Assembly (NCBI GenBank): GCA_964652255.1
Contig: CAZZBM010000001.1
Coordinates: 235,908-299,907, forward strand
Length of the DNA stretch: 64,000 bases
Direction of reading: 5' to 3'
From: an uncultured bacterium
Lineage (GTDB): Bacteria > Bdellovibrionota > Bacteriovoracia > Bacteriovoracales > CAZZBM01
Every line of letters begins with the position of its first letter. The first letter of the stretch is position 1. The notes below the pieces were generated by a model. The model worked only from the letters and a program-made list of their open reading frames with translations. It was not told where the DNA came from and made no database searches. This document shows, one piece after another, positions 54,504-58,090 of this stretch. The translations under genes were made by a program, and so were the position numbers.

Positions 54504-55401
54504 ATCTATTCTAGATCAAGGAATTCACGATCAAATTTTTACTCACTATGCTTGCTCCTTTGAAACTCATGATCATTCTTATCATTTTTTTTCTAAAGAT
54601 TCAGAACAACAATTTGACTTAGCTTCCTTAACTAAAATTTATGCTACAAAAATTCTTTATCATTTTCTTCTTCAAAAAAAAGTTCTTTCTATAGAAGATA
54701 ATATTAATAACTATGATGAAAGATTACCTTCTTATACTTTCAAAAATCTTTTTAATCATGAAACCCTCTTTCTTCCCTGGGCTCCTCTTTTCTTAGATCA
54801 AGATCCTATTGAAGGCTGTTTAAAATATCATCTCAATTCTAAATTTGAATATAGTGATCTTAATTATGTTCTTCTTTGGGAACTTTCAAAAATATTCACT
54901 TCTCCTTTAGAAACACTTTTAAACTTTTATCAAAAAAATTTTCTAAATCTCACTTTTTTTTTAGATGAAAAAAACTTTATTACCTCTACAACTTCTAATC
55001 TAGAGGAAATAAAATTAACAGAAAAATTAAATTTAAAAATAAATTTCCCACCAAGACCTCTTCTAAGTCTTAATGATTATAATGCTTATAAAGGGGTTTT
55101 AGGTCATGCAGGTCTACTGGGAAACTCTTTAGATATTTCTTATTTAAACAAAATTTTCTATCAAGAATTTCAGGAACAACCCTTTGGTTTTAAAAATGAA
55201 AAAAACTTTCAAGAAGATTTTTATTTACTTGGTCATGATGCTTTTACTGGTTGTTACAGTTTCATTCATGAAAAATTTTCTTTTGTTTTTTTAACTAATC
55301 ACCTTATTTACGGAAAAAAAGATCTGAAAGATTTTAGAAAAAAACTTCTGATGAATCTTATTCAAACTTATTTACCAACTTTTAATTTGAAGAAAAAATA
55401 A
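54493..55401 (+). CDS. serine hydrolase of the beta-lactamase/transpeptidase-like family
   Basis: SxxK motif in FDLASLTKIYAT near the N-terminus. 302 aa. No signal peptide is evident. Confidence 0.6.
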
Positions 55402-55939
55402 TTTCAGCGTTTTTATCACTATAAAATGAAACAACAAATTGATATTCTGGATGAGAATAACACTCATCACTAGGACTTTTTAAACTATTTTTCTTTAAAA
55501 AAAAAGTTCTAGAATAAGGCAGAGAAGGAGAAGTTATAGGGGGTGAGTAGTACTGCAACCAAGGATTTACATGAACCCCACCTACTTGAGCTCTAAATTG
55601 ATAAAGACCATTATTAAAAAAAGATCCTGTTGTTGATGATTGCAAACCATGAGATAAAATACTCTTACCTATTCCTATATTCCAAGACTCAGTTTTAACT
55701 TCTTTAATCGTTTTTATAAAAAAACCAACAGTATCTTTAGGATAAGAAAGATAAAGAGTTGTTGGTTCAAAGATAATATTTCCTAAAGCCACATACTCAG
55801 AACAAGTAGTTGAGGTACCATCCTCTTCAGAATTACTATTTGTAGGTTCTGAATTTTCTTCGGTATTGATTGAAGCAGCTATTGTCTCTTCTGAATTTTG
55901 ACGACAAGAAAAAAACAATAAAAAAACTAAGCCTAACAC
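55382..55939 (-). CDS. small paralogous lipoprotein, array member 5 of 5 (unknown function)
   Basis: N-terminus MLGLVFLLFFSC (lipobox). Shares the family blocks GGVHVNPW, SPSLPY and ECYSHPEY. Confidence 0.7.
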   Translation of the reverse strand: MLGLVFLLFFSCRQNSEETIAASINTEENSEPTNSNSEEDGTSTTCSEYVALGNIIFEPTTLYLSYPKDTVGFFIKTIKEVKTESWNIGIGKSILSHGLQSSTTGSFFNNGLYQFRAQVGGVHVNPWLQYYSPPITSPSLPYSRTFFLKKNSLKSPSDECYSHPEYQFVVSFYSDKNAEIIFSSN

Positions 55940-55959
55940 AGTCTCCTTATCGGATTTTA

Positions 55960-56439
55960 CTAATAAAAATAAATATCCCAGCCCTCTTGTAAAAAACCTA
56001 TTTTTATTCTTTGATCAGGATGCTCATAACACTCACCCTGAGGATCTTTTAAAGAATTTTCTGGCAGGTATTCTTCTAAGAAATAAGGTTTTTGAGGGAT
56101 AGCAATGTTGTAATATTCAATACTAGGATTAGCATGGGGTCCTTTGGTTTTAATGGTATAATGATAAGATCCTAGATAAAAACTACCCCCTAAGACTGTT
56201 CTTAAAGCTCCCTTGGAAAAATTTGCTTCACCTAAAGCTAGAGTAATTGAAGAAATTTGAAGAGCTTTATTGGTTTTTAAAAGAATAACAGCAGTATCTG
56301 GATCACTTTGATTGAGACCTTTTTCAAAAAATAGATCTAAGCTTTGACAAGAAGAACTTACATTTGAGTTTAAATCATTTAAAATATTATTATTTTGCTC
56401 CTGACAAGAAAAACACAGAAGCAAAATAAAAAATTTCAT
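55960..56439 (-). CDS. small paralogous lipoprotein, array member 4 of 5
   Basis: ATG 56439 gives MKFFILLLCFSC; the track ORF starts at 56460. Family blocks KGPHANPS and GECYEHPDQ. The C-terminus is WDIYFY. Confidence 0.7.
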   Translation of the reverse strand: MKFFILLLCFSCQEQNNNILNDLNSNVSSSCQSLDLFFEKGLNQSDPDTAVILLKTNKALQISSITLALGEANFSKGALRTVLGGSFYLGSYHYTIKTKGPHANPSIEYYNIAIPQKPYFLEEYLPENSLKDPQGECYEHPDQRIKIGFLQEGWDIYFY

Positions 56440-56909
56440 TGTTGAAAAGAAACATTCCAATTTTTACTTGTATAAATTATTTGTAACTTCACATCCTTAT
56501 CAGAAACATCCCCATCAACACTTCTTAAAGATCTCTTTGGAATAGTAAAATTTAGAGCATAAGGAAAAGAAGGGTTTACAACATCTTTCTTTTTAAAAAT
56601 ATTTTTATGAGGTCCTGTAATTGTAAAAAAATAAACAAAAATATTGTTTTCTAAAAAAGGACCAGCAACACTACCAATACATCCATTTTTTAAACAATAA
56701 GGGCCTATAGCATTTAAAACAAGTTGTTTATTGAAAAGAGGTTTTGTTGATTTAATAAGCATATGAGCTGTTCCACCAGTATTTTTCTCTTTAAGATTTT
56801 TTTCAAATAGTATTTCATAAGAAGAAATTTCTTCTTCTCTTTCTATGTCTTCAAAAGCATGCAGATTTTTATAATTAAATAATGCTAGTAATAATAAATA
56901 TTTTTTCAT
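56436..56909 (-). CDS. small paralogous secreted protein, array member 3 of 5
   Basis: Type-I signal peptide (MKKYLLLLALFNYKNLHAF), not a lipobox. Family blocks TAHMLIKS, CLKNGCIGSV, TGPHKN, NPSFPY and WNVSFQQ. Confidence 0.7.
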   Translation of the reverse strand: MKKYLLLLALFNYKNLHAFEDIEREEEISSYEILFEKNLKEKNTGGTAHMLIKSTKPLFNKQLVLNAIGPYCLKNGCIGSVAGPFLENNIFVYFFTITGPHKNIFKKKDVVNPSFPYALNFTIPKRSLRSVDGDVSDKDVKLQIIYTSKNWNVSFQQ

Positions 56910-56969
56910 GTTTATCTCCTTAGAAATTAATATTTCTATGAAGATATTTATCGGTAATTATGACATTTA

Positions 56970-57578
56970 TTATAATCTAAAATTCCAACTATATTGATCA
57001 TAATCTATGTAAAATTTAATATCTTGTTCATTTTTTGAGTTTAACTCTGATTCAAGAGAATAAGCTGGATAATGAAGCTCTAGAGTATAAGGAAGAGATG
57101 GACTAGAAACATTAGTCCAAGGATTTCCATGAGGACCTGTAACAGAGACAAAATAAGTATACTTTTTATTTCCTACTGGTCCAATTAAACTTCCGCCATA
57201 AACACTCACCAAACATCCCTTTTGAAGGCATTGATTCCCTAGAAGTACTACTAAATCTGTTGAATCTTGAAGAGCTTCATTAGTCTTTACTTTAATATGA
57301 GCAGTAGAATAATTTGTAAATTTTGTATCTTTCTCTAAAATAATTTCTAAGGGGTTAGTTTCAGATTGAGGTTTTACTGTCTGAACAAAAGGAGTTAACT
57401 GATTTTGAATGGTAGAAACTGGAGTGTTTTGATCAGACTTAATTCCTGAGCTTTTTCCAGCGATTTCAACGTCATTTTCTTTTTCAGATATATCCTCATT
57501 AAGAGATGAGTTTTTTCTTTCTTGATGAGGATTAGATAATTCTAAACAAGAAAATAATATTAAAAATAATAATTTCAT
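56970..57578 (-). CDS. small paralogous lipoprotein, array member 2 of 5
   Basis: N-terminus MKLLFLILFSC. Family blocks TAHIKVKT, CLQKGCLVSV, TGPHGNPW, SPSLPY and YSWNFRL. Confidence 0.7.
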   Translation of the reverse strand: MKLLFLILFSCLELSNPHQERKNSSLNEDISEKENDVEIAGKSSGIKSDQNTPVSTIQNQLTPFVQTVKPQSETNPLEIILEKDTKFTNYSTAHIKVKTNEALQDSTDLVVLLGNQCLQKGCLVSVYGGSLIGPVGNKKYTYFVSVTGPHGNPWTNVSSPSLPYTLELHYPAYSLESELNSKNEQDIKFYIDYDQYSWNFRL

Positions 57579-58090
57579 TAATTACCCTCCTGAAAGGATA
57601 CTGTGATTTTTTCTTCTTTATTCCAAAGATTATTAGAATTATTTAGAGCTTGAAAAGTTTTAGGTAAAAAAATAAATTCTAAATTTTTAGGCAAATTATC
57701 TTTATTAGTAATTTTTATTTCATATTGATATTCATATCCATCATTATTATTGATTTTTGTTACTTTAGGGTAAGAAGTTGTACATTTTTTTTTACAAGTA
57801 AATTTTAAAAAAGCAGATAACACCAGAGCAGGACAAATAAAAGAATTGCTAAGCATATTAACAATAACATGATCATTCATTACATTATAAATTTTTTGAG
57901 GAAATAAAATTTGAATATTAGAATTATTGTTTGGATCTATTGGTTCTATGTTTTGATCAGAATCTTCTAAAGAATAATCTTCAGGACTATAGCTATTGAT
58001 AATATTGTTAATATTCTCTTGAGTTGAAGATGAACTCTCTGATTTTTTATTTTCTCTACAAGAAAACAATACTAAAAACAATACAAACAT
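57578..58090 (-). CDS. small lipoprotein, array member 1 of 5 (most divergent)
   Basis: N-terminus MFVLFLVLFSC. Similar size, position and C-terminal ITVSFQEGN. 1-nt start/stop overlap with the next gene. Paralogy to the other four is weak. Confidence 0.6.
   Translation of the reverse strand: MFVLFLVLFSCRENKKSESSSSTQENINNIINSYSPEDYSLEDSDQNIEPIDPNNNSNIQILFPQKIYNVMNDHVIVNMLSNSFICPALVLSAFLKFTCKKKCTTSYPKVTKINNNDGYEYQYEIKITNKDNLPKNLEFIFLPKTFQALNNSNNLWNKEEKITVSFQEGN

Follow-up and report, generated by a model that had tools for sequence, protein, structure and literature searches.

The Mlp, Erp and OspE/F proteins of Borrelia and the variable lipoproteins of Mycoplasma are lineage-specific, paralogous families of bacteria with small genomes. 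A comparable array of five short minus-strand genes (labelled, in 5' to 3' order, P0005, P0004, P0003, P0002 and P0001; Table 1) is present in a 64,000-nucleotide stretch of contig CAZZBM010000001.1 from the assembly GCA_964652255.1 (hereafter the window, to which all positions refer unless a C1 coordinate is given). The source organism belongs to the Bacteriovoracales, and its genome is reduced (0.94 Mb, 29% GC, 96%-complete assembly). Four of the five genes make up a new family of a familiar kind, namely tandem lipoproteins that are confined to one lineage and encoded in a reduced genome. The likeness to the Borrelia and Mycoplasma families consists in small, tandemly encoded, lineage-restricted lipoproteins that combine a polar tether with a compact domain, and in the coexistence of many such families in one reduced genome. 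However, the array is related to those families neither in sequence nor in fold and lacks switching machinery; its carrier, a member of a predatory lineage, possesses an outer membrane; and one of the paralogs appears to have turned into a non-lipidated protein.

The other pertinent system is the attack-phase regulon of Bdellovibrio bacteriovorus. According to Karunker et al. 2013 (PMC3627812), the pattern TTAAG-N16-CCGATA is present in 92 of 140 attack-phase promoters of this bacterium and is assigned to FliA; besides many uncharacterised genes, the FliA regulon comprises non-flagellar genes for proteins of the cell surface. Candidate sites with the same consensus and N16 spacing precede genes of the array, and FliA is encoded in the source genome. 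The two systems differ in that neither flagellin nor FlhA is detected in the source genome, the sites lie 8-10 nucleotides (nt) from the start codons, and the programme is here predicted from the sequence. These sites would place the array in a FliA-driven envelope programme about half of which consists of lipoproteins and which is comparable to the Bdellovibrio attack-phase regulon. The interpretation that we favour, with a probability of about 0.5, is that the array encodes lineage-specific, envelope-tethered binding modules of this FliA-driven programme.

All five open reading frames (ORFs) are present where a first-pass annotation of this DNA had placed them. At 157-202 codons, they are far longer than expected by chance in DNA of ~29% GC and are therefore real genes; no ORF of 60 amino acids (aa) or more is found on the plus strand within the array. 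P0005 overlaps P0004 by 1 nt as TAATG and P0003 overlaps P0002 by 4 nt as ATGA; P0002 and P0001 are 20 nt apart, and the only sizeable gap of the array, 60 nt, separates P0004 from P0003. Shine-Dalgarno sequences are AGGAGG before P0004, AAGGAG located 6 nt before the ATG of P0003, and AAGGAG located 5 nt before the GTG of P0001.

Common ancestry of four of the genes, P0004 to P0001, is statistically solid, beyond doubt on the strength of pairwise phmmer comparisons. The best-matching pairs are P0003/P0004 (E = 1.9e-18) and P0001/P0002 (E = 1.3e-17), followed by P0002/P0004 (E = 3e-13), P0002/P0003 (E = 2e-10) and P0001/P0003 (E = 1e-6), with P0001/P0004 as the weakest pair (E ~1e-3). The region shared by the four proteins comprises the C-terminal 125-130 residues, more than the ~110 aa given in the initial description, and contains 14 invariant columns in an alignment of the four. 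All of the motifs initially read by eye (TAH[IM], CL[QK][KN]GC, GPHxNP/GGVHVNPW, [SN]PS[LF]PY and ECY[SE]HP) are found in the translations. The four paralogs form two pairs adjacent in the array, P0004/P0003 and P0002/P0001, which also differ in their cysteines: the former possess a C-x4-C motif (CLQKGC and CLKNGC), and the latter a distant pair (SSC/TTC...ECY[ES]HP). No cysteine is invariant across the four proteins, and only one histidine is. Given two cysteines in an exported protein, each mature domain probably contains one disulfide. Old tandem duplications gave rise to the four genes as two pairs, each with its own cysteine pair; the source genome contains exactly four copies of the family.

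The status of P0005 is different, and the original grouping of all five genes as paralogs holds for four of them only. The mature part of P0005 scores 2.9 bits against the hidden Markov model (HMM) of the four domains, a value equalled by 116 of ~1,930 scored sequences (out of 2,000 composition-preserving shuffles made). An hhalign comparison with the family gives P = 0.093, and in a ranking against the 68 other lipoproteins encoded in this genome, P0005 comes 7th, behind six unrelated ones; the semi-global profile z-score is 1.6. Because none of these three tests is significant, the array is best described as four family members and a neighbor of unproven relationship. That P0005 is a fast-evolved fifth member lacking the GPHxNP loop and the last strand is somewhat less likely than not. 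P0005 resembles the family in position, strand, size, lipobox and tether architecture, is coupled to P0004 through TAATG, and carries a C-x3-C pair at the place of the C-x4-C pair of P0004. Over 46 columns, the two sequences aligned by hhalign also run in the same order (YEYQYEIKIT...NLPKNLEF...EKITVSFQ with YTYFVSVT...SLPYTLEL...DIKFYIDY), but this weak, colinear resemblance of the C-terminal half is not demonstrably more than chance. An hhalign comparison of the family with the other lipoprotein families of the source genome yields no link. P0005 also contains an in-frame A9 tract (57785-57793) that encodes the KKK of C-K-K-K-C.

Three candidate FliA-type promoters accompany the array, before P0005, P0003 and P0001 (Table 1). 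The -35 element of the first one overlaps the stop codon of the upstream VIT transporter gene, and no Shine-Dalgarno sequence follows this site. The sequence CCGATAA occurs 26 times in the genome, and two of the eight non-coding occurrences are in the array, before P0001 and P0003. Among the hexamers of the 45-nt regions that precede start codons genome-wide, CGATAA shows the strongest enrichment, with 19 occurrences where 4.1 are expected, and surpasses even the Shine-Dalgarno hexamer; in 15 of the 19 cases, the distance from the end of the site to the start codon is 4-14 nt, and when the sites are aligned, a TTAAG -35 element appears at exactly N16 spacing. When the genome is scanned for both boxes of TTAAG-N16-CCGATA with up to 2 mismatches, 26 genes prove to have a site whose end falls 6-13 nt ahead of the start codon, compared to a background rate of 0.31 per nt (Poisson 3e-18). 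Lipoproteins account for 13 of these 26 genes, P0005 and P0001 included, compared to 94 of 996 genome-wide (Fisher 8e-8). Sites of the TTAAG-N16-CCGATA(A) type are also observed at the head of other clusters of orphan lipoprotein genes. Two further sites in the window precede 13902-16217 (C1_249809, d = 11) and 29360-29854 (C1_265267).

The source genome encodes a sigma factor of the FliA/WhiG family (C1:681032-681826), which matches TIGR02479 with 237 bits (cut-off 189.6), and the only other factors of the sigma-70 family found are RpoD and RpoH. Neither flagellin (PF00669) nor FlhA (PF00771) is found in the 96%-complete assembly, and sigma-28 seems to have outlived the flagellum in this organism. 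The location of sites 8-10 nt before start codons implies leaderless or nearly leaderless mRNAs. Accepting these sites, the array would consist of three FliA-type units, P0005-P0004, P0003-P0002 and P0001, two of them leaderless or nearly so, and translational coupling through TAATG and ATGA would join the genes inside the units. Taken together, the promoter signatures make FliA-dependent expression of the array, together with other envelope genes, somewhat the better bet. The earlier statement that no functional clue is evident can be set aside, given that the array has its own FliA-type sites and groups with a genome-wide set of lipoprotein genes.

The same sites bear on the relationship between the array and the VIT gene located upstream on the same strand. 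The array could be an accessory of this exporter, co-transcribed with it, with the lipoproteins handling exported Fe or Mn in the periplasm as chaperones or sinks. The two are only 33 nt apart with no terminator predicted between them (although the generic promoter and terminator scan used is uninformative in this AT-rich DNA), and the family includes an invariant His, Glu and Tyr as well as cysteine pairs. However, the best FliA-type site of the array lies within this 33-nt gap, with its -35 element over the VIT stop codon; the closest VIT homologs (48% identical) lack downstream genes for small lipoproteins; no cysteine is conserved in all four paralogs, which share a single invariant His; there is no Fur box near the array; and no similarity to a metal-binding family or fold is detected. 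With a candidate promoter of its own, an unconserved linkage, no conserved ligand set and no Fur box, a VIT-linked role of the array is quite unlikely.

The predicted route of export agrees with the favoured interpretation. The previously reported four FSC lipoboxes and one ordinary signal peptide, that of P0003, are borne out by the translations. P0005, P0004, P0002 and P0001 start with ultra-short signals of 10-12 residues that end in FSC, and their lipoboxes, LFSC in P0004 and P0005, FFSC in P0001 and CFSC in P0002, come after a hydrophobic h-region and conform to the general form [LVI..][ASTVIF..][GAS]C. The PROSITE rule PS51257 places the cysteine at residue 15-35 and calls for Lys or Arg within the first 7 residues, and the four FSC signals fall outside these constraints. 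Nevertheless, the pattern M(K/R)x[LFI]n[FLS]SC heads ~90 of the ~1000 ORFs and is the standard signal of the source genome, where ultra-short signals have the cysteine at residue 10-20, typically in the context ...[FLS]SC, and some n-regions are devoid of Lys and Arg. The ~90 lipoprotein ORFs form 11 small paralogous clusters, the array family being among the two largest. The genome encodes Lgt (PF01790, 216 bits), LspA (PF01252, 144 bits) and BamA; thus, the cell is equipped for lipoprotein synthesis and possesses an outer membrane.

The signal of P0003, MKKYLLLLALFNYKNLHA/FED, contains LFNY in place of LFSC, and signal peptidase I probably cleaves it behind LHA. The corresponding codons are TTT AAT TAT in P0003 and TTT TCT TGT in P0004, and comparison of the two indicates that a single G-to-A change (TGT to TAT) removed the lipid cysteine of P0003, which by parsimony would be a soluble derivative of a lipoprotein ancestor. 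The tethers between the cysteine and the domain are polar, acidic and of low complexity, and comprise 17 aa in P0002, 33 aa in P0001 and ~60 aa in P0004. In the mature protein, a disordered polar tether (17-60 residues, or ~12 in P0003) accordingly leads to the beta-rich domain of ~125-130 aa. P0004, P0002 and P0001 would be lipidated via the standard signal of the genome, and P0003 would become a soluble protein, either periplasmic or secreted. Judging by these signals, we regard Sec export with lipidation of three members and release of a soluble P0003 as highly probable.

This architecture is the same as that of the lipid-modified azurin (Laz/H.8 antigen) of Neisseria, in which a lipobox and a low-complexity linker precede a beta-sandwich of ~125 aa with the cupredoxin copper ligands His, Cys, His and Met. 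The difference is that the cupredoxin ligands are not conserved in the alignment of the array family, and no cupredoxin is found among the Foldseek matches. The two AlphaFold models (targets P0004 and P0002; predicted local distance difference test scores of 75.9 and 76.2, predicted template modelling score of 0.69) agree on seven strands, in accord with the beta-rich fold proposed at the outset. In a Foldseek search of the PDB with the first of these models, the best match is TssM (8Q00; E = 9e-3, template modelling score (TM) of 0.37), whereas the second model retrieves immunoglobulin-like (Ig-like) domains with E of at least 0.19 and TM of at most 0.38. The viral structure library BFVD provides no convincing match, and over PDB and BFVD together, the best E is 9e-3 and no TM exceeds 0.48, even if a partial match to a protein of 828 aa is counted. 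Ig-like beta-sandwiches (beta-2-microglobulin, the adaptin ear, and the Ig-like N-terminal domain of TssM 8Q00) are the best weak neighbors and share with the family domain a set of ~7 strands, but the TM of 0.26-0.38, the root mean square deviation of 7-14 A and E of at least 9e-3 offer no evidence of membership. In these models, the domain is beta-sandwich-like without a demonstrable structural relative.

The most conserved stretch of the domain is not its core but a long Gly/Pro/His/Asn-containing loop. Between strands 4 and 5, the loop 75-91 (GPHxNP...PSLPY) accounts for 6 of the 14 invariant columns. Such conservation argues for a shared functional site and speaks against antigenic diversification. 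It is tempting to suggest, if only tentatively and from the architecture, that a disulfide-stabilised domain on a flexible tether binds, by this loop, a common class of partners in the envelope, prey or host. The tethered domains would then act as envelope or surface binding modules whose conserved loop recognises a common class of ligands, with the paralogs differing in reach (the length of the tether) and anchoring.

The conserved loop is also relevant to two other views of the array. One is that the array encodes variable surface antigens, coats that are switched or diversified against hosts, grazers or phages in the manner of Borrelia Vsp/Vlp and Mycoplasma Vsa/Vpma. Tandem paralogous lipoproteins in a small AT-rich genome, tethers of varying length, dN (nonsynonymous divergence) about equal to dS (synonymous divergence) and, in a relative, the presence of other, unrelated lipoprotein genes in the slot after the hydrolase would all fit. 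Yet the array has no near-identical repeats, invertible elements or silent cassettes, only old, weak repeats; there is no homopolymer tract in its promoters or 5' ends, the single A9 being in frame inside P0005; and a promoter candidate for each unit makes co-expression likelier than switching. The paralogs are very old (23-35% identical), and the rates, dN of 0.73-1.2 and dS of 0.66-1.17 with a GC content at third codon positions of 0.10-0.18, are both saturated and uninformative, which makes dN/dS unreliable. With the loop as the most conserved segment, the opposite of immune-type diversification, the antigenic role is very unlikely, and the description of the domain as being under diversification finds no support.

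The other view casts the proteins as tethered periplasmic inhibitors, similar to Ivy, MliC/PliC or Inh/Omp19, that protect the wall or envelope of the cell from its own lytic enzymes (lysozyme, lytic transglycosylase and proteases). It draws on the architecture, small beta-rich tethered lipoproteins, on the predatory lineage, and on a conserved loop suited to insertion into an enzyme active site; furthermore, the C-x4-C loop of P0003 and P0004 is reminiscent of the disulfide-bonded CKPHDC loop of Ivy. Against it, Ivy, MliC and Inh give no Pfam match at E <= 1, and Ivy, MliC/PliC and Inh/Omp19 are missing from the top 50 Foldseek matches of either model, while the C-x4-C loop is absent in P0001 and P0002, and the operon contains no gene for a hydrolase partner. 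Inhibition of lytic enzymes thus appears unlikely; for neither this nor the antigenic role is there positive evidence.

Several observations weigh against the interpretation of the array as FliA-driven binding modules. Across the whole genome, the two-box pattern occurs 503 times compared to 794 times in the reversed sequence, so that only the proximity to start codons is non-random, and promoter calls are error-prone at 29% GC; within the array, the site before P0001 has a poor -35 element and that before P0003 has two mismatches. All four lipoproteins have the lipobox cysteine as early as residue 11-12, and while P0002 and P0004 have Lys2, the n-regions of P0001 and P0005 contain neither Lys nor Arg. 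LolA (PF03548), which is present in 8 of 10 relatives from the same order, is not detected in the source genome, where one MacB/LolC-like protein is encoded, and delivery of the lipoproteins to the outer membrane is therefore uncertain. The two structural models differ at domain residues 30-46, a helix in one and a low-confidence coil in the other. The binding-module role is deduced from the architecture, and the fold has no significant neighbor in PDB or BFVD. Finally, the family is carried by one genome only, which renders conservation across species unmeasurable.

A more far-reaching version of the same interpretation appears rather unlikely. Here, FliA would be the sole-purpose master switch of a 'hunting-stage' envelope coat composed mostly of orphan lipoproteins translated from leaderless mRNAs, with the four-gene family among its largest components and with a new beta-sandwich-like fold whose GPHxNP...PSLPY loop touches the prey or host.

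Taken alone, the array adds another entry to the orphan lipoprotein families that are common in reduced genomes, and its value lies in the context, that is, the lack of any relative among 1.84 billion representative proteins and of a recognisable fold, a promoter signature common to the array and about two dozen other envelope genes, and a FliA kept without detected flagellin or FlhA. The promoter link is the most useful result of the analysis. If the regulon is real, it provides a short list of candidate surface proteins for prey or host contact in an uncultured relative of Bacteriovorax. Chlamydia has kept sigma-28 after loss of the flagellum, and a genuine regulon would make the present organism a second example of sigma-28 surviving this loss.

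Searches at several levels confirm the initial impression that the family has no characterised relative. The profile libraries of Pfam, NCBIfam, PADLOC and PHROGs give no significant match to the family, the best hit in a sequence profile search of PDB has E = 0.7, and the structural comparisons by Foldseek point the same way. A word-indexed search of 5.8 billion proteins with P0004 retrieves only the query itself, and a profile search run exhaustively over 1.84 billion representatives retrieves only the four proteins of the array and one false match. P0007, a 1386-aa Ser/Thr-rich repeat protein, was rejected as a spurious relative because its score is the sum over a repeated 'NPSLSLNLTKE' unit. 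The family is found in none of 40 genomes from the same order, in which the sole match is full of stop codons, and the domain is absent from all of 80 mreB loci of other genomes, the closest of which are from Bacteriovoracaceae. Searches for related loci with single array proteins found none.

The MreB protein of the source organism is 75-78% identical to those of metagenome-assembled genomes of Bacteriovoracaceae, Halobacteriovoraceae and Bacteriovorax; the organism is a relative of the predatory Bacteriovorax with a tiny genome, and its lineage is predatory. It is represented in two DNA metagenomes, one from activated sludge and one from freshwater, and a check for strain variation in these found identical fragments only, at ~2x depth.

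Table 1. The array, its candidate promoters and the flanking genes (positions in the window)
Feature	Position	Strand	Description
P0005	57578..58090	-	170 aa; first gene of the array; signal MFVLFLVLFSC; 45-aa Asn/Ser/Asp-rich linker
P0004	56970..57578	-	202 aa; signal MKLLFLILFSC; polar linker of ~60 aa; family domain 56973-57359; CLQKGC cysteine pair
P0003	56436..56909	-	157 aa; no lipobox; almost no linker (~12 residues); family domain 56439-56834; CLKNGC pair
P0002	55960..56439	-	159 aa; signal MKFFILLLCFSC; 17-aa linker; family domain 55963-56352; cysteines SSC...GECYEHP
P0001	55382..55939	-	185 aa; GTG start; signal MLGLVFLLFFSC; 33-aa acidic linker; family domain 55385-55804; cysteines TTC...DECYSHP
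Promoter candidate 1 (P0005)	58101..58127	-	TTAAG-N16-aCGATA; 10 of 11 consensus bases; ends 10 nt before ATG; C1 294008
Promoter candidate 2 (P0003)	56949..56975	-	TTAtA-N16-CCGATA; 9 of 11 bases; ends 39 nt before ATG; Shine-Dalgarno present; C1 292856
Promoter candidate 3 (P0001)	55948..55973	-	Perfect CCGATA(A) -10 at 55953-55948, 8 nt before GTG; poor -35; C1 291855
VIT1/CCC1-family Fe/Mn transporter	58124..59152	-	PF01988, 198 bits; 33 nt upstream of the array
SxxK serine-hydrolase-like protein	54493..55401	+	Convergent with the array; distantly beta-lactamase-fold

Both flanking genes had been noted previously. The VIT assignment is corroborated by the Pfam match listed in Table 1, and the closest relatives of this transporter, 48% identical, have no small lipoprotein genes downstream. 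These relatives are Bacteroidota-like (Chitinophagaceae and Lacihabitans are among those named, and one neighboring gene encodes a Por secretion tail), and the VIT gene may have been acquired horizontally, as its sequence affinities suggest. The other neighbor, labelled a serine hydrolase, has the SxxK motif and resembles the beta-lactamase fold; it is only distantly related to PF00144 proteins, with 26-29% identity, and yields no Pfam match at E <= 0.01. Among 5.8 billion protein clusters, no more than two are close to it (48-50% identity).

One of these relatives (locus L009, with a hydrolase 48% identical to that of the window) keeps the order mreB-lipoprotein-hydrolase. Following the hydrolase, L009 contains two unrelated lipoprotein genes on the plus strand (2324-3023) in place of the array; thus, the slot appears to hold changeable lipoprotein cargo. 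The mreB-coupled gene of the window (53937-54503) encodes a 188-aa lipoprotein with no Pfam match, and in L009, a 177-aa gene is located between the upstream ORF and the hydrolase, in a position that matches that of the gene for the 188-aa lipoprotein.

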